A DNA stretch of 64,000 bases from an uncultured Actinomycetes bacterium (lineage in GTDB: Bacteria; Actinomycetota; Thermoleophilia; Solirubrobacterales; Solirubrobacteraceae). The DNA lies in NCBI GenBank assembly GCA_963714935.1, contig CAVQQA010000005.1, positions 28,289 through 92,288 on the forward strand, written 5' to 3'. Shown piece after piece: positions 3,599 through 45,118 of the stretch (position 1 is the stretch's first letter; each line of letters opens with the position of its first letter). The notes below the pieces were generated by a model that worked only from the letters and a program-made list of their open reading frames with translations, was not told the origin of the DNA and did no database searches. The position numbers and the translations under genes were made by a program.

Positions 3599-3867
3599 TT
3601 ACGCAGGCCGAGTTCGCGGACGAGCCCGCGATACTGCTCGAGGTCGCTGCGCTGCAGATAGTTCAGCAGCCGGCGACGGCGACCGACGAGCATCAGCAGC
3701 CCGCGACGCGAGGCGTGGTCCTTCTTGTGGGAACGCAGGTGCTCAGTGAGGTCGTTGATGCGCTGCGTGAGCAGCGCGACCTGAACGCGCGTGCTGCCGG
3801 TGGCCTGCTCACTGCCGCCGAACTGCACGACGATCTCACGGGTCTTCTCGGGTGAAAGGGTGCTCAT
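3595..3867 (-). CDS. rpsO: 30S ribosomal protein S15
   Basis: 90-aa ORF: [48 protein letters not shown]. Confidence 0.95.
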
Positions 3868-3903
3868 ATCGGGCGGTCGAGAGTAGCAGCAGGACGGCGG
3901 AGG

Positions 3904-4794: not shown

Positions 4795-5657
4795 GCCCGG
4801 AAGCCTACGAAAGGCTTGAGGGTGCCATCGGCCTGCCTGTGCGCGAGGGCGATCGGGCCGGCATCGTCGAGCAGCAGCACTGCGCCCTGCTCCGGCACGG
4901 ACTGCCGGTCGCGAGGCCGGTCGACCGGCGTGTCGGCGGGCACGGCCTGTCCGTGTGCGGCGCGGCGGGCGACGTCCCCGGCGAGCCGGGCGGTCGGGAA
5001 CCAGCCCAGCCCGTCGGCCAGCGGGATGACGCGGCCGGGGTCGCAGTCCTCGACCCGGAACGGCCCGATCCGCGTGCGCCGCAGTTCCTCGGTGTAGGCG
5101 TCGCCGAGGTCCGCCACCAGGCTGCGGACGTACGTGCCCGCCGAGCAGACGATCCGCAGCCCCGCCCGATCGCCGTCGCGCCAGAGCTGCTCGCATTCGT
5201 AGATCGTCACCTCACGCTCAGGCACGATGACCTCCTCGCCCGCTCGAGCACGCTCGTAGGCGCGGCGCCCGTCGACGTGTACGGCGCTGTGGGCCGGGGG
5301 GCGCTGGCGGATCGTTCCGGAGGGCAGCTCCAGGTCGCCTTCGGGTAGGACCCCCGTCTTCGTGATGACCCCCTCGGGGTCGCCGGTGCTGGAGATCGCC
5401 CCGAAGCGCGCGACTGCGAGGTACTCCTTGGGCAGCGCCGACACGAACTGCTGTACGCGTCGCGCGCGACCGACGAGGATCACGAGCAGGCCCGTGGCGA
5501 ACGGATCGAGCGTCCCCGCATGACCGGCCTTGCGGACGCCGAGCTCGCGACGCACGAGCGCGGTGATGTCGTGCGAGGTCTTGCCGGCCGGCTTGTCAGC
5601 CAGGAGGAAGCCGTCCAGCGGCTTCGCGGCGGCTGCGACCTTCGGCAGATCAGGCAC
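4791..5657 (-). CDS. truB: tRNA pseudouridine(55) synthase
   Basis: Intact 288-aa ORF: GFLLADKPAGKTSHD..AGHAGTLDPFATGLLVILVG (catalytic Asp motif). Confidence 0.9.
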   Translation of the reverse strand: MPDLPKVAAAAKPLDGFLLADKPAGKTSHDITALVRRELGVRKAGHAGTLDPFATGLLVILVGRARRVQQFVSALPKEYLAVARFGAISSTGDPEGVITKTGVLPEGDLELPSGTIRQRPPAHSAVHVDGRRAYERARAGEEVIVPEREVTIYECEQLWRDGDRAGLRIVCSAGTYVRSLVADLGDAYTEELRRTRIGPFRVEDCDPGRVIPLADGLGWFPTARLAGDVARRAAHGQAVPADTPVDRPRDRQSVPEQGAVLLLDDAGPIALAHRQADGTLKPFVGFRA

Positions 5658-21561: not shown

Positions 21562-24685
<3,124 letters not shown>

Positions 24686-25841
24686 TCAGGCTGGGCTGCC
24701 GATCTGCTCCAGGAAGCGGTCGAAGAGATAGAGGCGAGTCGTTGGGGCCGGGACCGGCCTCGGGGTGGTACTGGACGGTGCCGCCCGGCGACGTCGAGCA
24801 GCGTCAGCCCCTCGACCGTGCGGTCGTAGAGGTTCACGTGGCGTGAGCTCCGCGGCACCGAAGTCGGTCTCCCAGCGCACCGGCTCGTCACGCTCGACGC
24901 GGAGCCCGCCGTCCGGCGCGCAGACCGCGAAGCCGTGGTTCTGCGAGGTGATCTCGATCCGCCCGGTGCGCAGGTCCTTGACCGGGTGGTTGCCGCCGCG
25001 ATGGCCGAAGGGCAGCTTGAACGTCTCGAGCCCGACGGCCCGGCAGAGCAGCTGGTGGCCGAGGCAGATGCCGAACATCGGGGCGCTTGCCGACCAGCTG
25101 CGCGCACGGTCTCGACGACGTAGTCCGAGCGCGGCGGGGTCGCCGGGCCCGTTGGCCGAGGAAGATGGCATCGGGAGTCCGTGCCAGCAGCGTCCTCGGC
25201 CGATGCCGTGCACGGGTGCAGGTCGACGCGCGCGCCCGCGCGCGGTCGAGGTTGCGCACGATCGAGAGCTTGATCCCGGTGTCGAGCGCGGCGATCAGCG
25301 GACCGCTGTTGTCCGCGCCGTGACGCGACGACCGCGCCGGGCGTGACCTCGCGCGCCAGGTCCCGGCCGGTCATCGGCGGCTCGCCGAGAAGCCGCTCGC
25401 AGCGCCTTCGGCTGCGGGCACGCCGGCGGCGAACAGCCCGCCGCGCATCGCGCCCGCGCTGCGGATGTGGCGCACCAGCGCGCGCGTGTCGACACCGCTG
25501 ATCGCCGGGCACGCCGCAGTCGCGCAGCCAGTCGAGCCAGCCGCGCTCGGCGCGTCGGCGCGTCCTCGTGGTTGATCGGCGGCGCGCATCACGACGCGCG
25601 CGCGCGTGGATCGCGTCGGACTCCATCGCCTCGGCGCTGACGCCGTAGTTGCCGATGTGCGGATAGGTGAACGTGATCATCTGGCCGGCGAACGACGGGT
25701 CGGTCACCGACTCCTGGTAGCCGCTCATGCCGGTGGTGAAGACGACCTCGCCGAGAGCCGTCGGCCGTCGGCGCCGCAGAGCTCGCCGTCGAAGCGCGTG
25801 CCGTCCTCCAGCAGCACGTATCCGGGCCGGGCATCGGTCAT
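24686..25841 (-). CDS. carA: carbamoyl-phosphate synthase small (glutaminase) subunit, several frame breaks
   Basis: [47 protein letters not shown] and [10 protein letters not shown] (catalytic Cys). The stop directly abuts the carB ATG, and the ATG overlaps the upstream stop (ATGA). Confidence 0.9.
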
Positions 25842-26386
25842 CTGATCAGCTCCTGGATCGCCTTGAACTCAGGGGTGCCCGCCTCGCCGAGCAGCTCGAA
25901 CAGCGCCACCTCGACACTCGAGCCGATCGCGCCGGCCTGCTCGATGCGGCGCAGCCCGGCCTCGCGGTCGGTCGCCGCGCGCGAGGCGACCGCGTCTGCG
26001 CGCGACATGGACCTCGACGCCCTGCGGCGAGCAGGTCGAGCACGGTCTGGGCTGACGCAGACGTGCGCCTCGATGCCGCAGACGAGCGCCTGATCGCGCG
26101 AGCCGAGGTCGAAACCGTCCGAGCGCGCGGCCGAGAACGTGGTCTTGGCGAGCCGAGGCACGCCCGTCCAGGTGCGCCGAGCACCTCGTCGACGGTGTCC
26201 CCGAGCCCTCGCGGGTACTGCTCGGTGACGACGATCGGCATGCCGAGCGATGCGCGCGCCCTGCACCAGCATCGCGGCGCGCCGGGCGACCTCGTCGAAC
26301 CCGGGGATCGCGCTTGCGGAACGCCTCCTGGACGTCGATCGACGACGAGCGCAGCTCGCCGGCGGTCCAGCAGGTCGCCGCGTCAT
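25838..26386 (-). CDS. isochorismatase-family (cysteine hydrolase) protein embedded in the pyr operon, several frame breaks
   Basis: Fragments: [70 protein letters not shown] and the C-terminus [24 protein letters not shown] overlaps occur at both ends. Confidence 0.6.
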
Positions 26387-27777
26387 GCGCCGCTCGAGCT
26401 CCCGGATCCGGCGCCGCGCTGACCGCGAACGCACGCTCGCGGTAGGCGACGGCGCCCGCGGCGATCGGTCAGCAGCACGCGCCCGCGCAGCTCGCGGCCG
26501 GCGAAGCAGCAGTTCTCCGACCGGCTCTCGTAGCCGTCCTCGCCGACGACCCACGCGGCGTCGAGGTCGACGAGGCAGAGGTTCGCCGGCTCGTCCGACG
26601 GCGATCCGCGGCGTCGGCAGGTCGAACAGCGACGCGCCGCCGGTCAGCCGCTCCACGAGCAGCGCCGAGGTCGAGCGTCCCCGGCAGCACCAGCTCGGTG
26701 TAGAGCGCGGCGAACGCCGTCTCCAGGCCGGTCGTTCCCATCGGCGCCTGCTCGAACGGGCACCTCCTTCTCGTCGCGCGCGTGCGGCGCGTGGTCGGTG
26801 GCGACGCAGTCGATGACGCCGCGAGCGAGGCCCGTCGATCAGGGCCTGGCGGTCGTCCTCGGTGCGCAGCGGCGGGTTCATCTTCATGCTCGTGTCGAGC
26901 GTGCGGACCGCCTCGTCCGTCAGGCACAGGTGGTGCGGGCTGGCCTCGCAGGTGACGCGGTACCCGCGCGCCTTGCGCGAGCGCGACGGCCTCGACCGAC
27001 GACAGCGCAGCTGAGGTGCTGCATGTGCACCGCGCCGCCTTCGTAGCCGGCGATCTCGGCGTCGCGCGCGACCATCGTGGACTCGCTGATGCTCGGGATC
27101 CCCGCGACGCCGAGCAGCGCGCTGAGGTCCGCCCTCGTGCATGACGCCGCCGCCGCGACAGCGCCGGGTCCTCCTCGTGCAGGGCGAGCACGCCGCCGCA
27201 GAGCCGCTGGTACTGCAGCGCCCGGCGCAGCATGCCGGCGCCGACGCACCGGGCTTGCCGTCGTCGGTGAAGCCGAGCGCGCCCGCGTCGCGCAGCGCCG
27301 GCCATCTCGGTCAGCTCCTGACCGTCGCAGGCCGCGGGTGATCGCGGCCAGGAAGCCGACCGGGATGCGCGCCTCGCGCGCAGCGGCCGCGTCGCGCAGC
27401 GAGCGCAGCAGCGGCGCGGAGTCCACGACCGGGTCGGTGTTCGGCATCGCGAGCGACCGGCAGAAGCCGCCGGCGGCGGCGGCGCGCGTGCCGGTCTCCA
27501 GGTCCTCCTTGTGCTCCTGGCCGGGCGTGCGCAGGTGCACGTGCGGGTCGACGAAGGCCGGGAACAGGAGCGCCCGGTCGCCGTCGACGACCTCGTGCGC
27601 CGTCGGGCGCCTCGAGCGTCCCGGGCGCGCCGATCTCGGCGATCCGCCGTCGCGGACGAGCACGTCGAGCGCGCGCGTCGATGCCGGCGCGCGGGTCGAG
27701 CACGTGCGCGCCGCGGATCGAGCACGTCCGCCGGCGGCGCCGGCGGCGCGGACGAGCGGATCGTGCAGCAGCTCGCG

Positions 27778-27781
<4 letters not shown>
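26383..27781 (-). CDS. pyrC: dihydroorotase, many frame breaks; 3' end inferred from an ATGA overlap
   Basis: [42 protein letters not shown] (metal-binding HxH), HMQHLS, ASPHHL and MNPPLR pieces across frames. Confidence 0.85.
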
Positions 27782-29270
<1,489 letters not shown>

Positions 29271-30363: not shown

Positions 30364-30436
<73 letters not shown>

Positions 30437-30441
30437 CTTCG

Positions 30442-31583: not shown

Positions 31584-32417
31584 ATGCTCCGCACGGTCAG
31601 CGGTCGCCTGACGTATTCCAACGTCGTCGCCAGCCTGGCGCTGTTCATCGCGCTCGGAGGGGTCGGCTACGCGGCGGTCAAGCTGCCGAAGAACAGCGTC
31701 GGCAGGAGCCAGATCAAGAAGAACGCCGTCATCGGCTCGAAGGTCCGGACCGGCTCGCTCACCGGCAGCGACGTCAGGAACAGCTCGCTCACCGGCAGCG
31801 ACGTCAGGAACAGCTCACTCACCGGCAGCGACGTCAGGAACAGCTCGCTCACCGGCAGCGACGTCAGGAACAGCTCACTCACCGGCAGCGACGTCAGGAA
31901 CAGCTCGCTCACCGGCACTGACGTCAAGGACGGGTCGTTGAGCGCGAAGGACTTCAGCGGCTCCGTGCAGGGGGCGCCCGGTCCGCCGGGGCCGCCGGGG
32001 CCGCCGGGTGCGAAGGGCGACCCCTTCGATGAGCTGCCGAGCGGGCGCACTCTGAAGGGCGTCTACGACGTGGGCGGCACCGCGACGGGTGCCGAAGGGA
32101 GCCTCGTCCAGCACAGCATCAGCTTCGCGGTGCCGCTGCCCGCAGACCCGACGGCGCACGTGGTCGCCAGTGGTGGCACGCCCCCGGCCGCCTGCGCGGG
32201 GGGCACGCCCGCCGCACCCCGGGCCGACCCCGGGCATCTGTGCGTCTTCGAGCAACTCGGCAGCAACCGCGCAGCGATCGGTCCGGACAACATCACCGAC
32301 CCGACCGAGAACGCTGCGGGGAAGGGCGACAGGACCGGCTTCGGAATCTTCGTCCAGGCGTCGGGCAGTCCGGCGTTCTTCGGAAGCCGCGGAGGCTGGG
32401 CGGCCACCGCGCCGTAG
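31584..32417 (+). CDS. membrane-anchored repeat protein: N-terminal TM helix, 5-6 decapeptide (2x pentapeptide-like) repeats, (GPP)3 collagen-like stretch, C-terminal globular domain
   Basis: Intact 277-aa ORF: NVVASLALFIALGGVGYAA, then (SLTGSDVRNS)x5, then GAPGPPGPPGPPGAKGDP. The C-terminal domain has two Cys. Confidence 0.7.
   Translation: MLRTVSGRLTYSNVVASLALFIALGGVGYAAVKLPKNSVGRSQIKKNAVIGSKVRTGSLTGSDVRNSSLTGSDVRNSSLTGSDVRNSSLTGSDVRNSSLTGSDVRNSSLTGTDVKDGSLSAKDFSGSVQGAPGPPGPPGPPGAKGDPFDELPSGRTLKGVYDVGGTATGAEGSLVQHSISFAVPLPADPTAHVVASGGTPPAACAGGTPAAPRADPGHLCVFEQLGSNRAAIGPDNITDPTENAAGKGDRTGFGIFVQASGSPAFFGSRGGWAATAP
31753..31927 (+). repeat. near-perfect 30-bp tandem repeat (5 full copies plus 1 degenerate) inside CDS 31584-32417
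   Basis: gctc(g/a)ctcaccggcagcgacgtcaggaaca is repeated head to tail. The copies differ only at one g/a position. Confidence 0.9.
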
Positions 32418-32893: not shown

Positions 32894-33529
32894 ATGCGTG
32901 ACGACGGCCGAGCGCTGGCTTCGCGGCTCGCCGGCCAGGTCCGCGACGAGCGCGTGCTGCTCGCCATCGCCGAGACCCCTCGTGAGCTGTTCGTCCCTCC
33001 CGAGCTGCGTGAACGCGCCTACGCAAACCGAGCGCTCCCGATCGCATGCGGGCAGACGATCTCCCAGCCGCTCGTCGTCGCCCGGATGGCCGAGCTGCTG
33101 TCGCCGCGACCCGGCGATCGCGTGCTCGACGTCGGGACGGGGTCCGGCTACCACGCTGCCGTCCTTGCGGCGCTCGCAGGCCACGTCTGGTCGATCGAGC
33201 GCCACGAGGAGCTGTCCCGCAGCGCCGCGGCGGCGCTCGAAGCTGCCGGAGTCACCAACGTCACGTGCCTCGTAGGTGACGGGACCGCGGGGCTCCCGGA
33301 TGCGGCGCCGTTCGACGCGATCAACGTTGCGGCCGCCGCAGCGTCTCCCGCACTCGAGCGCCTCGCCGAGCAGATCGCTCCCGGAGGCAGGCTCGTCGCG
33401 CCCGTGAGCCGTCTGGGCGGACAGCGCCTGGTCGTAGCCAGGCGGCCCGCCTCAGGCGGGCCGCCCTCGTGGGAGTCCTTCGAAGCGGTCCGTTTCGTAC
33501 CGCTGATCGGCAACGATCCGGATCTCTAG
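32894..33529 (+). CDS. pcm: protein-L-isoaspartate O-methyltransferase
   Basis: RELFVPPELRERAYANRALPIACGQTISQPLVVARM..VLDVGTGSGYHAAVLA (SAM motif I). Confidence 0.9.
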   Translation: MRDDGRALASRLAGQVRDERVLLAIAETPRELFVPPELRERAYANRALPIACGQTISQPLVVARMAELLSPRPGDRVLDVGTGSGYHAAVLAALAGHVWSIERHEELSRSAAAALEAAGVTNVTCLVGDGTAGLPDAAPFDAINVAAAAASPALERLAEQIAPGGRLVAPVSRLGGQRLVVARRPASGGPPSWESFEAVRFVPLIGNDPDL

Positions 33530-35619
33530 TCGTCGCTCTTCCGGTGGCCGCCGGAACGACGAGACCGCAGCCTCAGCGGAGCGCTGTGCACGGACCCGTC
33601 GTCGAGGCTTACGCGGACCTCGTACTTCCCGGGCCCGGGCAGCCTGCGCGTGTTGAGGACGTATAGGTAGCGGCCCCGGCCCAGCGGGCGGAAGACATCA
33701 CGCGAGGCCCGGCGAGCAGCTCGGCGCGCGGTTCTGCGCCCAAGCAGCGAAGCCGCCTCCGCTCCGGCCTCGGCCTTGACGACCGTCAACCGGGCGACGG
33801 CCTTCGAGACCGGCCTGCCGTCGGCGTCGGTGAGGCGAAAGCGCAGCGGGATGCGAGACCCGTGGCGGAAGCTCCACTTGTGCAGGTTCCGAAGACCCCT
33901 GAACACGTACTTCGACGTCGCCGCGGGCGCCTTCACGGTGTACGCGCAGTCGGCGCTGCCGCGATTGCCCAGCTTGTCGTAGGCGGTCACCGTCGTGGTC
34001 CGATCGCCCTCGACATCCGTGCTCGTAACGCCCGTCGCAGTCGGTGAGGCGGGACCGGAGTGAGCGTCGGTCACGGTGGCGACGACGGGAGTCGCGGCGC
34101 CGCCGAGATCGAGCACGGGCGGTGCCGGGCAGGTGATCACCGGTCCGGCGAGATCCACCTTGGCCTTCAGCGCCGCGGCCGTCGCGGTGTTCCCGGCGAG
34201 GTCGCCGACGTCGTAGGTCCCGGTCATCGCCTGCGGGTCACCGGATCCGTCCGCGACGGATGTCGACAGATAGAACGTCGCATCGGCGCCGTTCGCCAGC
34301 CCCGACCCTCCGTCACTTGCCGAGCACGTGAAGAAGACGTTGAACGCGACCCAGTCGGACGGCCCTGCCAGGCACGAGATCGACGGCGCGGTCAGGTCGA
34401 CCGGAAGCGTGACCGGGAAGGCCGGTGATCCCGGTCCGGCTCCCACGTTGGACGGGGAGGACCCGTCGCCGGCGGTGCAGACGACGTTGTAGACCCCGTC
34501 CTGCAGCGTGAAGGTGCCGGGCGCCCCGCCCGTGTCGGCAAGCACCGTGGCGCCGTCAGCGCTGCATGAGAGCGAGGTCACGCCGCTCGGGTCGCTCGCC
34601 GCCACATCGACCGTCACGCCGCCGGGGCTGTCGGCGCTCGAGAACCACGCCCCTGACGGGGGAGCGAGCGGTGTCATCGTGATCACCGGCGGCTCCGTGT
34701 CGGCAGCCCCGCCGATCGCCACGCCGAAGACGCCGGCGTCGTCGAAGATGAGTTCGTGCTGAACGGCGGCGAGGCTGCCGTCGGCCGCCAGCCGTGCGCG
34801 GCTCAACGAGCCCATCGGTGGGCGGCTGGAGCTTGCGTTGGTCCAGAAGACCTCGGTGCCGGCCACGGCGACGCCCGCCGGGTCCTGGGCACCGGTGATG
34901 AAGGTCTGGTCGATGCCGCTGAGCGATCCGTCGCCCTCGATCTGGGCGCGGCCGATGCTGTTGCCGAACGAGTTGGCCCAGTAGAGCCGGTTGCCGGCGA
35001 CGGCGATCCCGGCGGCGCCGTTCACGGTGAGGAGGTTCGGCTCGACGCTGGAGACGCTGCCGTCGGATGCCAGTGCGGCGCGACCGATGCGCCCCATGTC
35101 GAAGTCCGTCCAGTAGATCGCGTCGTCCGCGACCGCGAGGCCCTCGATGTAGCCCGCTCCGGTCACGAGCGACGACTCGACCGCGCCGAGACTTCCGTCG
35201 GCGGCTATCGCGGCACGACCGATCGTTCCGCCGACCGTGCCCCAGTAGATGTGGTCCTTGTCGGCTGCGACGGCGAAGACCCCGTCGACTCCGGTGACGA
35301 AAGCGGCGTCGACCCCGGCCGGTGTGGCACCCGAGACGTCGGCGCGGCCGATCGCGCCAGTGTCGTAATCGGCCCAGTAGAGGCGGCTCTCGGCGGCGGC
35401 CACGCCGAACGGCCCGACGGGCGCTCCGATGAACGACGGCATCGCTGACGCGCCGGTGTTGTCGGCTCGGCCGATCCGGCCGTTGTCGTAGTTGCCCCAG
35501 AAGACCGCCGCCTGCGCGGTCGCCGTGGTCGCAGCGAGCGCAGCGGCTGCAAGCGCGGCTGCAAGAAGTGTGCGAACGGCAGTGTTGATGCGGTTTCCCG
35601 CGGTTTCCCCTCGTGTCAT
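33526..35619 (-). CDS. secreted surface protein: signal peptide, six YWTD/LDL-receptor-class-B-like propeller blades, Ig/HYR-like domains, basic C-terminal module
   Basis: ATG at 35619 (MTRGETAGNRINTAVRTLLAAALAAAALAATTATAQA|AVFW). Repeats include LYWADYDTGAIGRADVSG, IYWTDFDMGRIGRAAL, LYWANSFGNSIGRAQIEGDG and VFWTN. Intact 697 aa. Confidence 0.7.
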   Translation of the reverse strand: MTRGETAGNRINTAVRTLLAAALAAAALAATTATAQAAVFWGNYDNGRIGRADNTGASAMPSFIGAPVGPFGVAAAESRLYWADYDTGAIGRADVSGATPAGVDAAFVTGVDGVFAVAADKDHIYWGTVGGTIGRAAIAADGSLGAVESSLVTGAGYIEGLAVADDAIYWTDFDMGRIGRAALASDGSVSSVEPNLLTVNGAAGIAVAGNRLYWANSFGNSIGRAQIEGDGSLSGIDQTFITGAQDPAGVAVAGTEVFWTNASSSRPPMGSLSRARLAADGSLAAVQHELIFDDAGVFGVAIGGAADTEPPVITMTPLAPPSGAWFSSADSPGGVTVDVAASDPSGVTSLSCSADGATVLADTGGAPGTFTLQDGVYNVVCTAGDGSSPSNVGAGPGSPAFPVTLPVDLTAPSISCLAGPSDWVAFNVFFTCSASDGGSGLANGADATFYLSTSVADGSGDPQAMTGTYDVGDLAGNTATAAALKAKVDLAGPVITCPAPPVLDLGGAATPVVATVTDAHSGPASPTATGVTSTDVEGDRTTTVTAYDKLGNRGSADCAYTVKAPAATSKYVFRGLRNLHKWSFRHGSRIPLRFRLTDADGRPVSKAVARLTVVKAEAGAEAASLLGRRTARRAARRASRDVFRPLGRGRYLYVLNTRRLPGPGKYEVRVSLDDGSVHSAPLRLRSRRSGGHRKSDD

Positions 35620-35894
35620 GCGCGCTGCCTCGGCATGGGGGCGTCGAGGCTTGATCTTCGGCTGCGCGTGCCTGCCTCGACCGCGGCGCGTCCGAGGCTC
35701 CCCGGCAGCGCGAGCGGCAAGCACGCGACGGTGACCGGCGACGGTCACGAGACGAGCGGCGACGGCGCCGGTTTGGCCGATTTCTGGACGCCGGTGGACG
35801 ATCGGTCGATGCGTTCAAGCGTGTTCCGAAGGCTGCCGACACACGCCGCAACCCCGCAGTCAACTCGCGACGTCGACCTCCGGAGCCCTTTCAC

Positions 35895-37517
35895 ATGCCC
35901 AGCCGTACGCTGTCCTCCCTCACCAGGCGCATCCTGACCGCCCTCTGCCTGACCGCCGCGCTGCCCGCCGGCTCCGCAGTGGCTGCGCAACCGGCCTACT
36001 TCCCGTCAGGCCCGCAGAGCGGTGTCGCGAAGAGTTCCCTGACGGGCTGGCAGGAGTGCTACGCCGGCCCGTACAACGTGTCGACTCCGCTCGCTGACGT
36101 CCTCGCGTCCTGCGACGGCCAGTACCTCTTGATGGCCGGCAGCGTGGCGGGCAGCGACACGCTCTCCGTGCTCGCCGCCGGCGCCCGCGCCGATGTGCTG
36201 TTCGACACCGGCAAGAACCAGACCACGCCGCACGACGCGAACGGCGTCGGCTGGTACTACGAGAACGACTACTCGTGGGGGTTCGCTCCGCAGGGCGACA
36301 CGATCTTCCGCGACGAGTGCGACCAGGTCACCGGTGCGCTGCGCCTGTGCTGGCAGACGAACTACGTGCCGGGCGACCCGAACTACCCGGTGGGCGGCCT
36401 GAACCCCGGCTACCGGCTCGGCAACATCTTCGACCTCTACGACTCGTCCGGCGCCGGCTACACGCGCCACGTCTACGAGGAGGCCGGCAGCGCCGCGTCA
36501 GCGACGCCTTCGCTGACGACGTTCGCCGCTCAGCCGATGAGCACGGTCAGCCCGGCCAAGACGATCACGATCACCAACAACTCGGGTACGCCGATGGTGA
36601 TCACCGACCTGTCGCTCTCGGGAACGGATCCCGGTGACTTCCATCTCGGGTACACCAACTGCTTCCAGTCGATCGCGCCGGCCGGCACATGCCGGGCGAC
36701 GGTGGCGTTCGCGCCCCAGTCCAAGACCGGCACGCCGCCCGTTCCGGACCTTCGCAGCGCGTCGATCGGCTTCGCCGCGAACATCTCCTCCAACACGGTC
36801 TCGCTGGGCGGTACGGCGACCGCACTGCCCTCGGGCCCCGCCGGCCCGCAGGGCGCGACCGGCGCCACGGGCGCGACCGGAGCCACCGGAGCGACCGGCC
36901 CGACCGGCCCGACCGGCCCGCAGGGCGCGACCGGAGCGACCGGAGCGACCGGCGCCACGGGCGCCACGGGCGCGACCGGTGCCACGGGCGCCACGGGCGC
37001 GACCGGGGCGACCGGAGCTGCCGGTCCGCAGGGAGCCACCGGTCCGCAGGGACCGGCCGGCGATCCCGGTGGACCTCAGGGCCCCGCGGGTCCTGCGGGC
37101 GCCCCCGGTCCTGCAGGCACCCCCGGTCCCGCCGGTATCCCCGGTCCCGCCGGGACCCCCGGCGCCACGGGTGCACCCGGCCCCGCCGGCCCCAAGGGCG
37201 ACCGCGGTCCCCGCGGCAAGAGCGCCCCGAAGGCCAAGGTCAGGTGCCGCAAGTCCAAGAAGGCCAAGAAGACCTGCAGGATGCTCTTCCCGGCGAAGTC
37301 GTGGAAGGCCAGCGCCTCGGCAACAGCCAGCTACCGCATTTCGCGCAAGGGCAAGGTCATCGCCGCCGGGCTCGGCACGGTCCGCCGCTCCCGCACATCG
37401 ACATTCCGGCTGAATCGCACGCGCAAGCTGCGCCGCGGTACTTACACCCTGACGCTGCGCGCTCGTGACCGCGCGCGCCGCATGGTGACCATTCGCGGCA
37501 CCGTTCGCGTTCCCTGA
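35895..37517 (+). CDS. secreted collagen-like triple-helix-repeat protein with an N-terminal globular part, a HYDIN/choice-of-anchor-D-like beta-sandwich and a Lys/Arg-rich C-terminal module
   Basis: Signal peptide ..LPAGSAVA|[46 protein letters not shown], then about 42 G-X-Y triplets (36834-37219, mostly GAT/GPQ/GPA), then [17 protein letters not shown]. Intact 540 aa. Confidence 0.8.
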
Positions 37518-37633
37518 TGAACTCACCACCCGCGCCCGGCCGGGCGGGCGGGCATCGTCCGTCCGTCCGTTCGTGCGCGCAATGGGGTCAAGACCCTCTC
37601 AAGGCGTGCCGACGCGCGACCGATCGGTAAGCC

Positions 37634-38218
37634 ATGCCCGCCGTGCATATCAGCGCGCGCCACCGCGTCGGCGCTGAAGAGGGCTTCACGCTCGTAGAGC
37701 TTCTCGCCGCCATGGCGATCAGCCTCGTCATCGCCGCGGGAGCCCTGACCCTGCTCGAAGCGGCGGCGCCCTCGGCCGATCGTGAGCTCCAGCGACAGGT
37801 CGCCATCGGCGAGGGCCGGTCGGGAGTGGAACGAATGATCCGCGAGCTGCGCAACGCCGACATCGTGAACGCGACATCCCCCACGCTGATCGACGTGAAC
37901 ACACCCACCGCCTCCGGGCCGCTGCGCGTCGTCTATCAGTGCAACTCGGCCTTCCAGGCGGTGCAGTACCGACAGTGCGTGCGCTACTCCGGACCCGTCG
38001 GGGGCGCCGTGTCAGACGGCAGCGTGGTCGTGGAGCGCCTGATCAACGGCACGACTTCGCAGCCCGTCTTCACCTACGTCCCCGACCGGATCCGGCCGCG
38101 CGTCGTGCGCGTCCAGGTCGTACTCCCGGCCAGCGGCGGCCCGGCGCCCGGTTACATGCACCGGATCGTGCTCCGCGATGCCGCCTTCCTTCGAAACCTC
38201 GATCTGACGGGCGGATGA
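37634..38218 (+). CDS. type IV prepilin-like protein (PilW/GspJ-like minor pilin)
   Basis: The leader ..RVGAEEG|FTLVELLAAMAISLVIAAGALTLL is the N-terminal cleavage/methylation motif with Glu+5. 194 aa, intact. Confidence 0.75.
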   Translation: MPAVHISARHRVGAEEGFTLVELLAAMAISLVIAAGALTLLEAAAPSADRELQRQVAIGEGRSGVERMIRELRNADIVNATSPTLIDVNTPTASGPLRVVYQCNSAFQAVQYRQCVRYSGPVGGAVSDGSVVVERLINGTTSQPVFTYVPDRIRPRVVRVQVVLPASGGPAPGYMHRIVLRDAAFLRNLDLTGG

Positions 38219-39480
38219 CGATGCGACACGAAGACGGAGCGACGCTGATCGAGGCCATCATGGCGATGCTCGTACTCGTCCTCGGCGTGATCGGCAGCTT
38301 CACCACCTTCGACGGTGTTCAGCGCCTCGGGATGCTCGGCGAGAAGAAGCAGTCGGCCACTCGCTACGTGCAGTCCGAGATCGAGCAGGCCCGCAACCTG
38401 GGCTGGGCCAATCTCAAGATGAGCGCGACGCCGCCGGCGTCGTCTGACTCACGCGGCGTCGTTTCGGGCTCGACCTACGCGCCGCCGAACGGCGTTGCGC
38501 AGACCATGGTCGTCTCGCCGACGCCGCTCAGCTGCACCAACACGACCTGCGTGAACCCCGGGCCCGAGACGTGGACCTACGGGAGCGCGAGTGGATCCGT
38601 GTACCGCTACGTGACCTCCTCGCAGGACACGCTGTGCGGCTCGGCCTGCCCGGCGGGAGGCACCGACCACCTGCGGGTCACGATCGCGGTGACGATCAAC
38701 GGGCCGAACGCACCGAAGGCGGCGATCGTCACCTCCACGGTCGTCATCGACCCGGCCGCGGCGCCCAGCAACGCCACCCAGAACTCCAACCCGGTCAGCT
38801 CCAGCAGCGGCACGTCGATCGGCGGCGCCACCGGCACCACCTACTACCTCAGCGATACGCCAACCGGCCAGAGCTACGCCGCCCCGGCGACGGCCCACGC
38901 CACGCGCGACACGATTGGCGCGACGGGTGTTCCCGACCAACTGCGTACCGACGCGCCGACCTTTCCCGAATCGGGATCTCCGACCGCGGTCTCGTACTCG
39001 ACCGACGTACCGCCGCAAAGCGACGGCGGTCTCGGCCTGACTGCCAGCGCCGCCTGCAACGGAAGCACGGTCACGACCTCCCACCGCTGGGTGACGCCGA
39101 TCCTCGACGCTTCGGGAGCAGTGACGGCGACCGGCAACGCGGCCCTCTCGATGCCGACCTCACTGCTTGATGCCGACGCTGCGACCGGAGCGCCCGGGCA
39201 ACTCTGCATCAAGGTCTACAGCGTCGCGCTCAACGGCTCGGACCAGGTGTCTTCGAGCACCTTGCTCGGTTCGTTCAGCTACCAGCTCGCGGCCTGGCCT
39301 GAGACGGCTGAGTTGCTCTCCTTCCCGTTCCGCTACCTGGCAACCGGGACGACGGCGAGCCTGCCGGCCGGCAGGCGCCTGATGGTCGAGCTGACCGCGG
39401 ACAGCGCCAGCTCCCAGGGTCTGGTCCTCATCTACGACCACCCGAACTTCCCTGCATCCGTACAGCTGGAGACCCAGTGA
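38215..39480 (+). CDS. type IV prepilin-like protein (PilV-like minor pilin with a large Ser/Thr-rich C-terminal domain)
   Basis: The ATG at 38215 overlaps the previous stop (ATGA). MTMRHEDG|ATLIEAIMAMLVLVLGVIGSF. 421 aa, intact. Confidence 0.65.
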   Translation: MTMRHEDGATLIEAIMAMLVLVLGVIGSFTTFDGVQRLGMLGEKKQSATRYVQSEIEQARNLGWANLKMSATPPASSDSRGVVSGSTYAPPNGVAQTMVVSPTPLSCTNTTCVNPGPETWTYGSASGSVYRYVTSSQDTLCGSACPAGGTDHLRVTIAVTINGPNAPKAAIVTSTVVIDPAAAPSNATQNSNPVSSSSGTSIGGATGTTYYLSDTPTGQSYAAPATAHATRDTIGATGVPDQLRTDAPTFPESGSPTAVSYSTDVPPQSDGGLGLTASAACNGSTVTTSHRWVTPILDASGAVTATGNAALSMPTSLLDADAATGAPGQLCIKVYSVALNGSDQVSSSTLLGSFSYQLAAWPETAELLSFPFRYLATGTTASLPAGRRLMVELTADSASSQGLVLIYDHPNFPASVQLETQ

Positions 39481-40823
39481 TGAAGCCCATGCCACAGCTC
39501 GCTCGCGAGGACGGGTTCTCGATGTACATCGTCGTCATGGTGATGATGGTGCTCCTGACGCTCGGCGCGGCACTCTCCGCGGCCGGACACCAGTCCTCGA
39601 CCGGGATCAACCAGGACGAGGCCGCCGTGCGCGCGCTCCAGGCCGCGGAGTCCGGAGCGCAGGCCGCCGTCCACCGGCTGAACCTGCAGCAGCCCGGTGA
39701 CACCAAGTGCATCACGACGACGATCGCCGACCCGCAGAGTGGGAACGCATGGTGTGCGCAGACCAGCGCGGAATCGGTCGGCAACGGGGCCTCGTACCGC
39801 TACCAGACCTCGACCCCGGTGACGAACGGCTGCACCGGCGGCAGCTTCGGCTCGGCGACCGTCGAGCGCTGCGTCGTGTCCGTGGGGACCGCTGGCGGCG
39901 TCACGCGCCGCGTGATCCAGCGCGTGGTCTCCTCGTCCGGCGCCGACCCCTTCCCGGTCAACGGCATCGTCGGCAAGGACTTCATCAAGGCGAAGAACAA
40001 CAACAATGTCGGCGGCGGCGTCGGGACCAACGGCCAGCTCGAACTGGGGAACAACAGCACGATCACCGGCAACGTCCAGCTCTGGCAGGGTGCACCCAAC
40101 CCGATCGGCTACTCGGGGCCGGTGCAGCGCAACCCGCAGCCGTTCGTGCTGAGCCCGCCAAACATGCTCAACCCGGCGACACTGCTCGACTCCAACGCCA
40201 GCAACGACAACGGCCGTCTCGTCTCGGGGGCGAGCCCCGCGGACAGCTGCTCGAGCGGGTCCGGGGCCTGCTACGTCAACACCCCTGCCTCGCCGCGGAA
40301 GCTGACGATGGCCAACAACAAGAGCGTCACGCTGGGCGGGAGCGTCTACAACTTCTGCCAGATCAGCTTCGGCAACGGCGCCTCGGTCAACATCGCGGCC
40401 GGCGCCAGCACGCTGATCTACATCGATTCGCCCACGCGCCCGGGCTCAGGCTGCGTGGCCGGTCAGGGAGGCATATCGACCGGCAACAACGCGACCTTCT
40501 CGAACCCTTCGAACGACCCGCGCGCCTTGCTGATCGTGATCTACGGCCAGGCTCCCGCCTGGCCGGTCATCGACCTTCCGAACAACATCACCACCTACGG
40601 CGGGATCTACGCCCCCGACACGGGCATCCAGTTCAAGAACAACGGGACCTTCGTCGGCGGCATCACCGCAAAGAGCATCGAGTTCAAGAACAACGCGTTC
40701 ACCTGGGACTCGCGGCTCTCGACGACCATGCTCGCGACCACGCTCGTCTACTACCGCGGCGCATGGCGGCAGTGCAATTCGCGCGTGCAGAGCACGAGCG
40801 CTCCGGCCACGGGCTGCCTCTGA
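39477..40823 (+). CDS. PilX-N-like pseudopilin with an Asn/Gly-rich beta-helix-like C-terminal domain
   Basis: The GTG at 39477 overlaps the previous stop (GTGA); an ATG lies 3 nt later. ..LAREDG|FSMYIVVMVMMVLLTLGAALS..QAAESGAQAAV (PilX_N-like). The C-terminus has GGIYAPDTGIQFKNNGTFVGGITAKSIEFKNNAFTWD. 448 aa, intact. Confidence 0.65.
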   Translation: MMKPMPQLAREDGFSMYIVVMVMMVLLTLGAALSAAGHQSSTGINQDEAAVRALQAAESGAQAAVHRLNLQQPGDTKCITTTIADPQSGNAWCAQTSAESVGNGASYRYQTSTPVTNGCTGGSFGSATVERCVVSVGTAGGVTRRVIQRVVSSSGADPFPVNGIVGKDFIKAKNNNNVGGGVGTNGQLELGNNSTITGNVQLWQGAPNPIGYSGPVQRNPQPFVLSPPNMLNPATLLDSNASNDNGRLVSGASPADSCSSGSGACYVNTPASPRKLTMANNKSVTLGGSVYNFCQISFGNGASVNIAAGASTLIYIDSPTRPGSGCVAGQGGISTGNNATFSNPSNDPRALLIVIYGQAPAWPVIDLPNNITTYGGIYAPDTGIQFKNNGTFVGGITAKSIEFKNNAFTWDSRLSTTMLATTLVYYRGAWRQCNSRVQSTSAPATGCL

Positions 40824-40826
40824 GCC

Positions 40827-43247
40827 TCAGGCCGCGGGCAGTGGCTGGCTGAGCGTCAGCACCTCCGCGAAGAGGTCTCCGTGCTCCGCGATCCGCTCGC
40901 GGACCTGGCCCGCCGTGAACACCAGCTGCTCGGCGTCCCCTGAGGCGAGGCATGCCTCAACCTCCTCCCACGTCACGGGCGTCGAGACAGTCGGCCGGTC
41001 ACGACCGCGCAGCGAGTAGACGGCGACCGTCGTCTTGGCACGGTCGTTCTGCGCCCAGTCGATCAGCACCTTCCCCCTGCGCGCCGTCTTCGCCTGAGTG
41101 GACACGGCCAGCGCGGGCTCCTCGCGGGCGAGCAGGTCCGCAACGGCCCTGGCGAACGTCTTCGAGGCCTCGAACGTCGCATCGGGCCGGTTCAGCGGCA
41201 TGTACACCTGGAGACCCTTGGAGCCTGACGTCTTGGCGAGACTGTCGAGGCCGAGCCCATCGAGCATGCCGCGAAGCAGTCGCGCGACCTGACAGCACTC
41301 GACGATCGTCGCCGGCGCGCCGGGATCGAGGTCGAAGACCACGGCGGTGGGACGGTCCGCGGTCTTCGCGAGCGCGAGCGAGGGATGCAGTTCCAGCGCT
41401 GCCAGCTGCGCCAGCCAGACCAGCGTGGCGGGCTCGTCTGCGAGGACGAAGTCGATCGTCTCGCGGCCGAGCGTGACCGCCTGCGTCTTCGCCCAGCCCG
41501 GTCTGTGTGACGGTGCGCGCTTCTCGAAGAAGGCCTCACCCTCGACGCCGTCCGGGTAGCGCTTCAGGGTCAGGGCGCGGCCCGCGAGGTGCGGCAAGAG
41601 CGTCCATGCCACCGCCGCGTAGTAGTCGATCACCTGCCGCTTGCTGAAGCCCGCCTCCGGGAAGAGCACCTTCTCGAGGTTGGTGACCGCAACCCGGCGC
41701 CCGCCGATCAGCGCCGTCGCCGTTGCTCCCCTGCCGCGCACGTTCCGCTCTTCGACGAGCACCAGCCTGGTCGGCCCGTCGTCGCGCAGGCCGAGCCACA
41801 CGGGGTGGCGCAGCAGCCCGCCCTCGGGATGCTCGGTGAAGCGGACCTCGCCGACCAACTCCGGCGAGACCCAGTGGCTGCCGGACGGCGGGCCGCTGCC
41901 GCGGGCGGTGGCCGCGAACGGGGAGCGATCCGCCGCGAGCGGCTGCAGGCGCGCCGCGAGGTCGTCCAGTGCCCGCTCGGAGAAGCCGGTCCCGACCCGC
42001 CCGGCGTAGCGCAGGAGACCATCGGCGCCCGGTTCGCCGACGAGCAGTGCGCCGATCCCGCCCGAGCGTCCCCCCTCCCCCTCGACCCAGCCGCCGATGA
42101 AGAGATCCGCCGTGTGGCCCTGCTTGACCTTGACCCACGCGCTGCTGCGCCTGCCCGGTTCGTAGGGGGCGCTGCGCCGCTTGGCGACGATGCCCTCGAG
42201 TCCGAGGCTCGCGGCCGCGGTCAGGAGCGCCGCGCCTTCGTCGTGAGGTTCAGGCGTCTGCCAGTGATCGCCGTCGAGGTCCAGGGCGCTGAGCAGTTCG
42301 CGGCGATCGGAGTACGGGAGCCCCATCAGCGAGCGTCCATCGAGCCAGAGCAGGTCGAACACCACGTAGGTCACGGGCACCTCGCCCGCGAGCTTGCGAA
42401 CCCGGGCTGCGTTCTCGACGTGCATGCGGCGCTGAAGCGCCTGGAAGCTGGGGCGCCCCTGCGCGTCGAAGGCGACGATCTCCCCGTCGAGCACCGCCGA
42501 GTGCTCATGGAGAGCGCGGTTCATGCGTGCGAGCTCTGGATAGCGAGCGGTGATGTCGCCGCCCGATCTCGCAGACAACGTCATCCGCCCCGGCTCCGAA
42601 CGCGCTTGCGCGCGAATACCGTCCCACTTGACCTCGAACGCCCAGTCGTCGCCCTCGGGCACCTCTCCGGGCCGGGCCAGCATCGGCGCCACGAAGTCCG
42701 GCATCGGCTGCGCGTCAGGGTCGGCCGGCGCGCCCATGCGGTGGATCATCCAGTCCTTGCCCGCCGGCTCACCGGCGGGCGCGAGCGGGAACAGCGCGTA
42801 GCGCCCGCGCACTCGCTCTCCGTGCAGGTCGACCTCCACCTTGCGCGCTTCCCACTTGAGCGGCTCGTAGGTCCCCGAGTCGTGGATGCGCATCGTCCCC
42901 GCGCCGTACTCCCCCTCCGGAATCTCGCCCTCGAACGCGAGGTAGTCGATCGGGTGATCCTCGGTCCGCACCGCGATCCGGTTGTCGCCGGACGACCCGG
43001 GGATGTACCGCGGCAGCGCCCACGAGACGAGCACGCCGTCACGCTCCAGCCGCAGGTCCCAGTGCAGCCGGGTCGCGTCGTGCTCCTGGATCACGAACCG
43101 CGGGGCGTTGCCCGTCTCGCCGTCCGAGGCACCGCCGGCAGGCTCGGGCGTCGCACCGAAATCCCTCTTCGAGCGATATCCACGGAGCGGGTCGGCCACC
43201 CCGCCGTTATACCCGTCACGGGGCGACTCGGAGGCCCGTATCGACAC
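40827..43247 (-). CDS. ligD: multidomain NHEJ ligase LigD (3'-phosphoesterase - ATP-dependent ligase - polymerase/primase)
   Basis: Intact 806 aa. PE domain: PRFVIQEHDATRLHWDLRLE. Ligase: FEVKWDGIRAQA (KxDG). Polymerase: LTLKRYPDGVEGEAFFEKRAP. No ku gene is adjacent. Confidence 0.9.
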   Translation of the reverse strand: MSIRASESPRDGYNGGVADPLRGYRSKRDFGATPEPAGGASDGETGNAPRFVIQEHDATRLHWDLRLERDGVLVSWALPRYIPGSSGDNRIAVRTEDHPIDYLAFEGEIPEGEYGAGTMRIHDSGTYEPLKWEARKVEVDLHGERVRGRYALFPLAPAGEPAGKDWMIHRMGAPADPDAQPMPDFVAPMLARPGEVPEGDDWAFEVKWDGIRAQARSEPGRMTLSARSGGDITARYPELARMNRALHEHSAVLDGEIVAFDAQGRPSFQALQRRMHVENAARVRKLAGEVPVTYVVFDLLWLDGRSLMGLPYSDRRELLSALDLDGDHWQTPEPHDEGAALLTAAASLGLEGIVAKRRSAPYEPGRRSSAWVKVKQGHTADLFIGGWVEGEGGRSGGIGALLVGEPGADGLLRYAGRVGTGFSERALDDLAARLQPLAADRSPFAATARGSGPPSGSHWVSPELVGEVRFTEHPEGGLLRHPVWLGLRDDGPTRLVLVEERNVRGRGATATALIGGRRVAVTNLEKVLFPEAGFSKRQVIDYYAAVAWTLLPHLAGRALTLKRYPDGVEGEAFFEKRAPSHRPGWAKTQAVTLGRETIDFVLADEPATLVWLAQLAALELHPSLALAKTADRPTAVVFDLDPGAPATIVECCQVARLLRGMLDGLGLDSLAKTSGSKGLQVYMPLNRPDATFEASKTFARAVADLLAREEPALAVSTQAKTARRGKVLIDWAQNDRAKTTVAVYSLRGRDRPTVSTPVTWEEVEACLASGDAEQLVFTAGQVRERIAEHGDLFAEVLTLSQPLPAA

Positions 43248-43356: not shown

Positions 43357-43635
43357 TCAGCAGCCGCCGGCCACGGCGGGGAGGATGGTGACCTCCTGCC
43401 CCGGGGCGACCTCGGTCTCGAGCGCCTCGCCGAAGCGGATGTCCTCGCCTGCGACGTACACGTTCACGAACCGGCGCAGCCCACCGCTCTCGTCGGTGAG
43501 GCGGTCGCGCAGCTCGGCGTGCTGCTCGAAGAGAGCGTCGAGAACCGCTCCAACGGTGGCGCCGTCGACCTCGACCGCGCTGACGCCGCCGGCCGCCTCG
43601 CGCAACTGCGTCGGGAGCTTGACGGTGACGCTCAT
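43357..43635 (-). CDS. MoaD/ThiS-family ubiquitin-like sulfur-carrier protein (or a C-terminal carrier domain fused to the upstream ThrC-like enzyme), ending ..AVAGGC
   Basis: The ATG at 43635 gives 92 aa: MSVTVKLPTQLREAAGG..VNVYVAGEDIRFGEALETEVAPGQEVTILPAVAGGC*. This is a beta-grasp carrier pattern with C-terminal Gly-Gly plus one Cys. No stop codon separates it from the upstream ORF. Confidence 0.75.
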   Translation of the reverse strand: MSVTVKLPTQLREAAGGVSAVEVDGATVGAVLDALFEQHAELRDRLTDESGGLRRFVNVYVAGEDIRFGEALETEVAPGQEVTILPAVAGGC

Positions 43636-44899
43636 GCGCGAACGCCCTCGACTCTCGACGTCTGCCACGAACGAGTCGTATGAGGCATCGATCTCGAATG
43701 TGTCGAACGTGTCGCGGACGGCGTCGAGCGTCTTGAGGCCTTCGCCGGTGATCGTCAGGACGACACTCTCGTCAGGCCGGATCGCGCCCCGCGCCGCGAG
43801 CTTCGCAAGGCCTGCGGTGGTCACGCCGCCGGCGGTCTCCGTGAAGATCCCGGTCGTCTCGGCGAGCAGCCGGATGCCGTGGCGGATCTCCTCGTCGGTC
43901 ACCGACTCGATCGTCCCGCCGCTGGTCTTCGCCAGCTCCAGCGCGTAGGGGCCGTCCGCCGGGTTGCCGATCGCGAGCGACTTGGCGATCGTGTCGGGCT
44001 TGACCGGCCTGCAGACCTCCGCCCCGCTCTCCCACGCCTGCGCGACGGGCGAGCAGCCACTGGCCTGCGCTCCGTGCATGACCGGCACGTCACCGCTGAT
44101 GAGGCCGAGGTCCAGCCATTCGCTGAAGCCCTTGGCGATCTTCGTGTACAGCGACCCGGACGCGACCGGCGCGACGACGCGATCCGGTGTGCGCCATCCG
44201 AGCTGCTCGGCGATCTCGTAGGAGATCGTCTTCGAGCCCTCCGCGTAGTACGGCCGCAGGTTGACGTTCACGAACGCCCAGTCGCGCTCGCCGGAGAGCT
44301 CGGTGCACAGGCGGTTGACGTCGTCGTAGTTGCCGCGGACCTTCACGACGTTGGTGCCGTAGACGCCGGTCGCCAGGACCTTCTGCTCCTCCAGGTCGGC
44401 CGGGATGAAGACGTAGCTGTCCAGGCCGAGTGCCGCGGCGTGTGCGGCGACGGAGTTCGCGAGGTTGCCCGGTCGAGGCGCACGCGAGCACCTCGTAGCC
44501 GAGTTCCCTCGCGCGGGCAGCGGCGACGCTGACGACGCGGTCCTTGAACGAGTGTGTGGGATTGGCCGCGTCGTTCTTGACCCAGACCTCGCCGAGCCCG
44601 AGCCGCTCGGCGAGCCGGTCGGCGCGAATCATCGGGGTGCAGCCTGCGGGCAGGCCGCTGCGTGAAGACGCTCTCCCGGACGGCCCGGGCTGCCCGCCGA
44701 CGAGCGGCAGGAAGTCCGCGTAGCGCCAGATGTTCTGAGGTCCGCCCTGGATGCGGCGGCGGATCTCCGCACGGTCGGTGGTCAGCCCGGTGTGGTCGTA
44801 CGCGACCTCGAGCGGACCGAAGCAGCGGCTGCAGACGTAGCTCGCATCTAGTTCGTACTGCGCGCCGCACTCGCGGCAATTCAGGCTTGTAGCTCCCAT
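43636..44899 (-). CDS. threonine-synthase-family PLP enzyme with an N-terminal zinc ribbon (ThrC-like; possibly a MetM-type homocysteine synthase); one frame break near 44468
   Basis: MGATSLNCRECGAQYELDASYVCSRCFGPLEV, NPTHSFKDRVVSVA (PLP lysine), ACASTG(+1 nt)NLANSVAAHAAALG and GNPADGPYALE..ETAGGVTTAG. It is preceded by a SAM riboswitch. Confidence 0.85.
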
Positions 44900-44944
44900 G
44901 GAAACCTCGCTGTGACACGTGGCGGAGACCTCTGGAAGCTCCGT

Positions 44945-45031
44945 CCACATCTTTCAGGAATTGGCACCGTCCCCAATTACGGGGGGTTGCCGGGGTTTCG
45001 TCGGGCCAGTCCCTCCACCCCTCTGGATGTG
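44945..45031 (-). promoter_or_regulatory. SAM-I-family riboswitch aptamer lacking P4 (SAM-I or SAM-I/IV variant)
   Basis: The minus strand reads CACAUCCAGAGGGGUGGAGGGACUGGCCCGACGAAACCCCGGCAACCCCCCGUAAUUGGGGACGGUGCCAAUUCCUGAAAGAUGUG. This is near-identical to the SAM-I core (AGAG-GGUGGAGGGACUGGCCCGAUGAAACCCGGCAACC...GGUGCCAAUUCC..GAAAGAUG). P1 is CACAUC/GAUGUG. It ends 45 nt upstream of the ThrC-like ATG. Confidence 0.85.
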
Positions 45032-45118
45032 TCAGCTATGTGGGGCGGCAGCCTAGCACGCAGGTAGACTGGAACGCGAGGCGAAATCCGATGAACACCG
45101 ACGAGCCGCGAAGTCCCG

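Follow-up and report, generated by a model that had tools for sequence, protein, structure and literature searches.

We analysed a stretch of 64,000 nucleotides (nt) from an uncultured Actinomycetes bacterium (Solirubrobacteraceae; assembly GCA_963714935.1, contig CAVQQA010000005.1, positions 28,289-92,288 of the forward strand), referred to as the window in the following, with a G+C content of about 71%. The focus is on three consecutive plus-strand genes, ORF1 to ORF3, which probably form the core minor-pilin operon for the type IVa-like pilus of a monoderm actinobacterium of the Thermoleophilia type. They encode a minor pilin of 194 amino acids (aa; 37634-38218), a modular minor pilin of 421 aa (38215-39480) and a PilX/GspK/ComZ-type pilin of 448 aa (39477-40823). 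Directly 5' of the trio lies a gene for a collagen-like secreted protein, from which a gene for a secreted protein with propeller and immunoglobulin-like (Ig-like) domains is divergently transcribed. The 116-bp gap between the collagen-like gene and ORF1 holds a GC-rich hairpin and a putative promoter motif, and a convergent LigD gene follows the trio.

The three frames are linked by genuine stop/start overlaps, i.e., ATGA (38215-38218) between ORF1 and ORF2 and GTGA (39477-39480) between ORF2 and ORF3, with GGATGA and CAGTGATG as the respective junction letters. Coordinates and junctions agree with an earlier note on this DNA, which had described three translationally coupled frames of these sizes. 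Alternative ATG starts exist for ORF2 (38221, 419 aa) and ORF3 (39480, 447 aa), and the public annotation adopts both.

The earlier note had also assigned each of the three proteins a prepilin signal with Glu at position +5, which holds for ORF1 and ORF2 but not for ORF3. ORF1 starts with a 17-aa leader that ends in Gly and is followed by FTLVE (EEG/FTLVE), i.e., with Glu at +5. It scores above the curated cutoffs of both PF07963 (25.7 bits, cutoff 21.2) and TIGR02532 (24.2 bits, cutoff 16.3). Among its homologues (n=18), G17 and E22 are invariant and 15 match N_methyl. A profile search of ORF1 against PDB sequences gave matches to the N-terminal helix only, and the GspI, GspJ and PilV models match ORF1 and ORF2 only N-terminally and far below cutoff (gspJ 14.5 vs. 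64.85 bits; PilV 13.8 vs. 52.2 bits). Judged by these searches, ORF1 is assignable to pilins in general only.

For ORF2, both the Gly at -1 and the Glu at +5 are present (HEDG/ATLIEA). Its own N_methyl score of 12.8 bits is under the cutoff, while 12 of 24 family members match the model (E ≤ 0.1, best E 6.5e-6) and the two residues are nearly invariant in the alignment of 24 homologues. The AlphaFold2 model (mean predicted local distance difference test score, pLDDT, 75.7) shows a helix (residues 9-60) and a beta-sheet up to about residue 176, which together make up a pilin module, followed by a disordered linker (178-202) and a C-terminal jelly-roll beta-sandwich. In Foldseek, the best relatives of the jelly roll are the CocE/NonD hydrolases with their C-terminal domain (E 6e-7), along with jelly rolls of the TNF and CBM type. 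Given this predicted succession of pilin module, linker and jelly roll, ORF2 is a modular pilin. Streptococcus sanguinis PilB likewise combines a pilin module with a bulky, putatively adhesive C-terminal module in a monoderm host; there the module is a vWA domain instead of a jelly-roll beta-sandwich, and the comparison concerns architecture only.

ORF3 shows the leader, the Gly and the helix as well (EDG/FSMYI), but has Ile at +5. Glu at this position is found in none of the 17 aligned homologues, and ORF3 gives no match to N_methyl. It does match DUF7305 (32.8 bits, cutoff 27), as do all 17 family members. PilX_N (PF14341) is matched by 4/17 members (best E 2.3e-4), with the window protein not among them. 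The AlphaFold2 model of ORF3 (mean pLDDT 76.9) comprises a long N-terminal helix, a small beta-sheet, a long series of short strands and one more strand near the C-terminus. Its top Foldseek match in the PDB is ComZ (6QVI, E 1.3e-8), followed by beta-solenoids of ice-binding proteins (E 4e-4 to 5e-3). A profile search against PDB sequences found nothing, i.e., the likeness to ComZ is structural, without detectable sequence similarity. ComZ itself consists of a GspK-like pilin domain and a solenoid similar to that of FfIBP, and has been argued to locate at the pilus tip; it is a DNA-binding tip pilin that is essential for transformation (PMC6561018). Absence of Glu5 is a hallmark of the terminal PilX/GspK subunit, and in cyanobacteria all PilX subunits have a pilin plus solenoid architecture, for which the solenoid was proposed to replace the PilY1 plug where PilY1 is absent (bioRxiv 10.64898/2026.02.12.705559). 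On the basis of its predicted model, ORF3 is a PilX/GspK/ComZ-type tip pilin with a pilin module and a beta-solenoid.

To place the trio in its lineage, we examined 72 fetched loci (denoted by L numbers) via tblastn and gene calling with an iterated codon-usage caller. The locus scan used an 8-sequence ORF3 alignment (A2), since the 17-sequence alignment was too divergent. The homologues come from Thermoleophilia/Solirubrobacterales, including cultured Patulibacter species and metagenome-assembled genomes (MAGs) assigned to Conexibacteraceae and Thermoleophilaceae. The family comprises 10,392 representatives at E ≤ 1e-3 and 568 at E ≤ 1e-30. Of the 72 loci, about 40, from Thermoleophilia, have the trio in the same gene order. 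Most relatives carry the three genes between pilA and pilD, and Thermoleophilaceae-type loci, as well as several further ones, show the order pilA-ORF1-ORF2-ORF3-pilD-pilM-pilN-pilO (L012, L013, L017, L018, L025, L026, L044-L047, L049, L051, L062). Read by eye, shikimate-pathway-like genes (aroC, aroK/B, aroQ) lie 3' of pilO in these loci. L022 encodes pilC-pilT-pilB 3.5-7.6 kb downstream of the trio, and L005 has the three genes inside a full pilus cluster in a different order. Overall, the trio is linked to pilus machinery in at least 15 Thermoleophilia loci outside the window's clade. The identities of the pil genes are backed by Pfam and by a PilD homologue search; the search seeded with a relative's PilD gave at least 120 matches, all of at least 80% identity among the matches listed. 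Other lineages, among them both Patulibacter genomes, have an isolated trio surrounded by housekeeping genes.

A motif scan of the window found neither a GspE Walker A nor an A24 motif, and prepilin N-termini occur only in the three members of the trio. A tblastn search of the window with Thermoleophilia PilA, PilD, PilM, PilN, PilO, PilB, PilT and PilC returned nothing but the ORF1 N-terminus. Motif scan and tblastn thus agree with the earlier statement that a major pilin, PilB/PilT, PilC and PilD are absent from the 64 kb. A neighbour-joining tree of the ORF3 homologues places the window in a monophyletic group with L001, L037, L003, L007, L002 and L010. One MAG, ant_bin.541, has two complete trios on different contigs (L007 and L010), with a collagen-like gene beside only one of them. 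The trio had been called an orphan. This is correct in that it lacks machinery in the window; on the other hand, homologous trios sit in pilus clusters, such that the trio is relocated only. Since the same trio is found beside pilA/pilD-pilMNO or pilBTC in many relatives, it can be taken as the core priming/tip set of the lineage, and the "orphan" state appears to be a common, derived and relocated arrangement of what appears to be the standard core minor-pilin set. The trio appears to depend on machinery encoded elsewhere.

Apart from the trio itself, the complete cluster of L005, a distant relative, shows a gene for a 385-aa sigma-70 region-4 protein (3796-4953) and a PhdYeFM/PIN toxin-antitoxin pair directly 5' of its major pilin gene.

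Upstream of ORF1, a putative sigma-28/WhiG-like promoter motif is located on the plus strand (37599-37626). It consists of TCAAG (37599-37603), a 15-nt spacer and ACCGATCG (37619-37626), and begins 35 nt upstream of ORF1. Since it ends only 7 nt before the ATG, a leaderless or near-leaderless transcript would be implied. The pattern TCAAG-N15-17-CCGAT has a single match in the whole window when both strands are considered, and for the looser form T[AC]AA-N16-18-CCGAT all fetched DNA together gives a background of about 0.012 per 330 nt. The motif recurs at the identical -35 offset from ORF1 in L001 and L037 as well as in L010, which is an independent locus. L023 shows a relaxed form of it, and in L007 it lies upstream of the collagen-like gene. 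Seven listed Thermoleophilaceae loci also have the motif 219-221 nt before pilA, and as TCAAG-N15-ACCGAT it is found almost invariantly between pilD and pilM in eleven Thermoleophilaceae loci (L013 12244-12269; L017 5789-5814; equivalents in L025, L026, L044-L047, L049, L051 and L062).

A related system is known from Rubrobacter of the sister class Rubrobacteria, where the WhiG (sigma-28-type) consensus TAAA/GCCGATAA drives pilus genes; homologues of RsiG, the cognate anti-sigma factor, have been reported in Thermoleophilia (PMC8325347). There, a flagellar-type sigma promoter lies 5' of pilus operons, and the putative Thermoleophilia motif found before ORF1, pilA and pilM is similar to it. They differ in that the Rubrobacter promoter reads TAAA-N15-GCCGATAA, while the Thermoleophilia motif reads TCAAG/(A/G)CCGAT. 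Neither whiG nor rsiG was located in the window. When the strict published WhiG consensus was searched with up to 3 mismatches, no match was obtained upstream of ORF1. The motif was recognised only after relaxing the pattern to the locally conserved TCAAG/CCGAT, which involves some post hoc fitting. Motif conservation, taken by itself, points to a separate and probably leaderless pilus-regulon promoter for the trio. TCAAG-N15-ACCGAT looks like a class-wide sigma-28/WhiG-type signal of the pilus regulon that may be used to find further members. This putative promoter type suggests that dispersed pilus operons are tied into one regulon.

Taken together, HMM (hidden Markov model) results, the ComZ/GspK-like fold predicted for ORF3 and the homologous trios in complete pilus clusters support the earlier assignment of the three proteins as minor pilins. 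For their mode of action we propose the following scheme. A prepilin peptidase encoded elsewhere would cleave the three prepilins after the leader Gly. Contacts between the N-terminal helices would then hold the mature subunits together in a staggered GspI-J-K-like complex, which would prime the assembly of the filament and remain at its tip. Here, ORF1 would be the small connecting subunit and ORF2 would contribute a lectin-like jelly-roll domain. ORF3 would be the terminal cap, plug or adhesin, similar to ComZ or cyanobacterial PilX, because it lacks Glu5 and carries a bulky beta-solenoid. The trio's own sigma-28/WhiG-type promoter, of the kind found before pilA and pilM in relatives, would, if active, allow for expression with the pilus regulon despite the distance from the machinery genes.

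Three known systems are close to this scheme. ComZ of Thermus thermophilus (6QVI) resembles ORF3 in combining a pilin module with a large triangular, ice-binding-related solenoid, and also in being encoded by the last gene of a minor-pilin operon with a predicted tip position; the partners of ComZ are PilA1-PilA3. The differences are in size (447 aa for ORF3 vs. about 500-520 residues in the crystallised ComZ chains), in number (three vs. four pilins) and in the monoderm actinobacterial host. Cyanobacterial PilX with its PilV/PilW partners shares with the trio the absence of Glu5 and the solenoid, and these sets can also lie away from the machinery (bioRxiv 10.64898/2026.02.12.705559). Here, the phylum differs and ORF2 has an extra jelly-roll domain. 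GspI-GspJ-GspK and PilV-PilW-PilX are likewise encoded by three coupled genes of rising size, with the largest last and without Glu5, and their priming/tip role is the one we propose for the trio (PMC7248040). On the other hand, the cap insertion of GspK is an alpha-helical domain, while that of ORF3 is predicted to be a solenoid, and the trio has no GspH/FimU-like fourth subunit. The earlier view that no such module is characterised in the lineage therefore holds for Thermoleophilia, while the module type as such is known from Thermus and cyanobacteria. That is, the operon is not a new kind of system. Its value lies in a sequence-level definition of a priming/tip set for Thermoleophilia, an abundant but little-studied class of soil actinobacteria, with a small pilin, a predicted jelly-roll modular pilin and a putative ComZ-like solenoid cap. 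It would also add monoderm Actinomycetota to Thermus and cyanobacteria as carriers of the solenoid PilX/ComZ cap architecture.

Several observations weigh against the assignment as a core minor-pilin operon. The major pilin, PilD, PilB/C and PilMNO are all missing from the 64-kb window, and no clade locus is linked to machinery within the available flanks (10 kb of the trio). There are only three minor pilins instead of the canonical four, with no FimU/GspH-like adapter. In the MAG UFOp-RH-23may17-598 (L003/L006/L038, 10001-11383), the ORF3 homologue is kept at the syntenic site, but ORF1 and ORF2 are lost. The prepilin HMM search proposed in the earlier note placed ORF1 above the cutoffs, while ORF2 and ORF3 of the window themselves fall short of the N_methyl/PilX_N thresholds. 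The template modelling scores (TM-scores) of ORF3 vs. ComZ from Foldseek are low (0.26), which we attribute to domain orientation. Finally, the promoter motif agrees with the WhiG consensus in part only, i.e., at 3/4 and 5/8 positions (TCAA vs. TAAA and ACCGATCG vs. GCCGATAA).

We also compared the trio of the window with that of two relatives. Ratios of nonsynonymous to synonymous substitution rates (dN/dS) are 0.10-0.13 for ORF1, 0.17-0.21 for ORF2 and 0.24-0.35 for ORF3, such that the trio is kept by selection. Divergence from L001 climbs along the operon from ORF1 to ORF3. For ORF3 (9998-11350 in L001), dS is 0.69 compared to 0.14-0.30 for the neighbours, and aa identity is 77% compared to 92-97%. 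This suggests allele exchange or recombination at ORF3, the putative exposed tip pilin.

The two large secreted proteins beside the trio bear on a different interpretation, i.e., that the trio is a tip complex on which one or both of them are displayed as a PilY1-like adhesin, with the five genes as one functional module. The collagen-like protein (540 aa; 35895-37517, plus strand) consists of a Sec signal, a conserved N-terminal domain, a choice-of-anchor D domain (NF012200), GXY repeats and a basic C-terminal domain without LPXTG. In the window protein, GXY runs span residues 314-394 and 396-443; the collagen-like protein has 24-43 GXY triplets. With a Pfam Collagen score of 69.5 bits and the choice-of-anchor D domain, the earlier description of a Sec-signal collagen-like protein upstream on the same strand is borne out. 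The models of Lcl, SclA and SclB reach 63-75 bits only, compared to cutoffs of 325-500, and a profile search with the N-terminal region yielded no PDB relative. The 697-aa propeller/Ig protein (33526-35619, minus strand) has six 'xIGRAxxxxDGS' repeats, weak matches to Ldl_recept_b and Vgb_lyase, Ig-like domains and a PxKF C-terminal domain. Repeats and domain matches are in accordance with the divergent six-repeat propeller/Ig protein described before.

Within the window's clade, the collagen-like gene is found directly 5' of the trio, on the same strand, in 4/7 loci (window, L001, L037 and L007), which favours a five-gene module. So does L007, where the collagen-like stop codon and the ORF1 start share nucleotides (TGATG); together with the motif 5' of the collagen-like gene, this overlap implies a four-gene operon there. 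Just 5' of the trio, L023 and L003 instead carry a gene for another secreted protein, which is arylsulfotransferase-like (PF05935/PF14269, Pfam). Furthermore, scans of the 116-bp collagen-ORF1 gap for a consensus terminator and a sigma-70 promoter found nothing, and the lack of a consensus terminator favours the module as well.

Against a five-gene module, the collagen-like gene is not beside the trio in L002, L010 and L023, nor in any locus outside the clade, including all machinery-linked ones. In L001, it carries a single frameshift near codon 223. The propeller gene is found in only 3/7 clade loci, all from close genomes (window, L001, L037), and beside the trio nowhere else; it is divergently transcribed, and a scan of the window revealed no pilus-type promoter motif for it. 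The co-occurrence check of the five genes proposed in the earlier note showed all five together in these three loci only. In the window, the collagen-like gene and ORF1 are moreover separated by the separate promoter motif and a stable, GC-rich hairpin (37531-37579, plus strand) that starts 14 nt past the collagen-gene stop codon. This hairpin has z-scores of -2.45 (window) and -2.66 (L001), with 4/200 shuffles folding equally well. It has no U-tract, and no comparable hairpin is present in the respective gap of L037. The hairpin may be the terminator of the collagen-like gene.

PilY1/PilC of Proteobacteria are large Sec-secreted tip adhesins encoded beside minor pilins. The two large proteins of the window resemble them in being Sec-secreted and in lying beside minor pilins. 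However, neither matches the PilY1/Neisseria_PilC models or vWA at E ≤ 1, and the window's neighbourhood is conserved in one clade only. A shared basic C-terminal module of both proteins, which the earlier note had seen by eye, was tried and rejected: the similarity is not significant (BLASTP E = 2.6) and PxKF matches the propeller protein only. Since ORF3 is predicted to have its own solenoid cap, an additional plug fits less well. Overall, the idea of a PilY1-like adhesin presented by the trio draws weak support from the coupling in L007 and is countered by the clade-limited adjacency and the missing PilY1/PilC match, and we regard a five-gene functional module as unlikely. The propeller protein is probably outside the pilin module. 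The collagen-like protein neighbours the trio in one lineage only, and a role as accessory of the pilin operon is no more than possible.

A narrower variant is that the collagen-like protein forms a trimeric fibre at the tip of the clade's pilus, being expressed together with the three minor pilins and docking on them. Its basis is one relative, L007, with translational coupling behind a pilus-type motif, and we consider it a low-probability lead that would be interesting if true. The combination of a collagen-like adhesin and a type IV pilus was not found in the pilus literature searched, and we know of no collagen-tipped type IV pilus elsewhere.

The core minor-pilin operon would also be compatible with a more specific role, i.e., that the trio primes a competence (DNA-uptake) pilus with ORF3 as ComZ-like tip DNA receptor. 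By analogy, this could be read from the best structural match of ORF3, since ComZ is a DNA-binding tip pilin needed for transformation, and from the LigD gene (40827-43247, minus strand; assigned via Pfam), which adjoins the trio in the window, L001 and L037. In addition, the distant locus L022 shows a gene with a LigD Prim-Pol domain and an exonuclease III homologue (by eye). LigD is, however, not adjacent in most loci, and com genes (ComEA/ComEC) did not turn up in any of them. Moreover, solenoid PilX subunits prime motility and adhesion pili in cyanobacteria as well (bioRxiv 10.64898/2026.02.12.705559), and we thus take a competence-specific role to be rather improbable. That the trio is a decaying or silent remnant which no longer serves a pilus in the window's lineage is very improbable, since, despite the absence of machinery within reach in any window-clade locus and one relative that keeps ORF3 alone, the frames are intact with dN/dS of 0.10-0.35 in three genomes, Gly at -1 and Glu5 are invariant or nearly so, and the promoter motif has kept its offset.

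With regard to the genomic surroundings, the trio is the most constant member of a variable island between tRNA-Arg/RNase Z and thrC in the window's clade (30.4-43.3 kb in the window). The tRNA-Arg(CCG) gene (30364-30437, plus strand) adjoins RNase Z at the island edge, and the G+C content of the island is not atypical. Depending on the genome, the island holds a CDF transporter with ArsR, a pentapeptide protein, the propeller gene, the collagen-like gene, the arylsulfotransferase-like gene or LigD. The pentapeptide protein of the window (31584-32417, plus strand; 277 aa) has an N-terminal hydrophobic segment and 5-6 tandem 'SLTGSDVRNS' pentapeptide-type repeats, matches Pfam Pentapeptide with E 9.5e-12 and is conserved in L001.

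Two further observations concern the remainder of the window. On the minus strand at about 22100-28700, the carB, carA and isochorismatase genes look split across frames, with partial Pfam matches and poor coding signal, which likely reflects assembly indel errors or pseudogenes. Also on the minus strand, an S-adenosylmethionine (SAM) riboswitch (RF00162, 82 bits; 44944-45033) lies upstream of a threonine-synthase-like (PALP) gene (43357-44628). The C-terminus of the encoded protein resembles a ThiS/MoaD sulfur-carrier domain with a GG-C end, while L001 has separate ThiS and PALP genes. The riboswitch-linked PALP gene may belong to a SAM-controlled protein-thiocarboxylate route to homocysteine or methionine.

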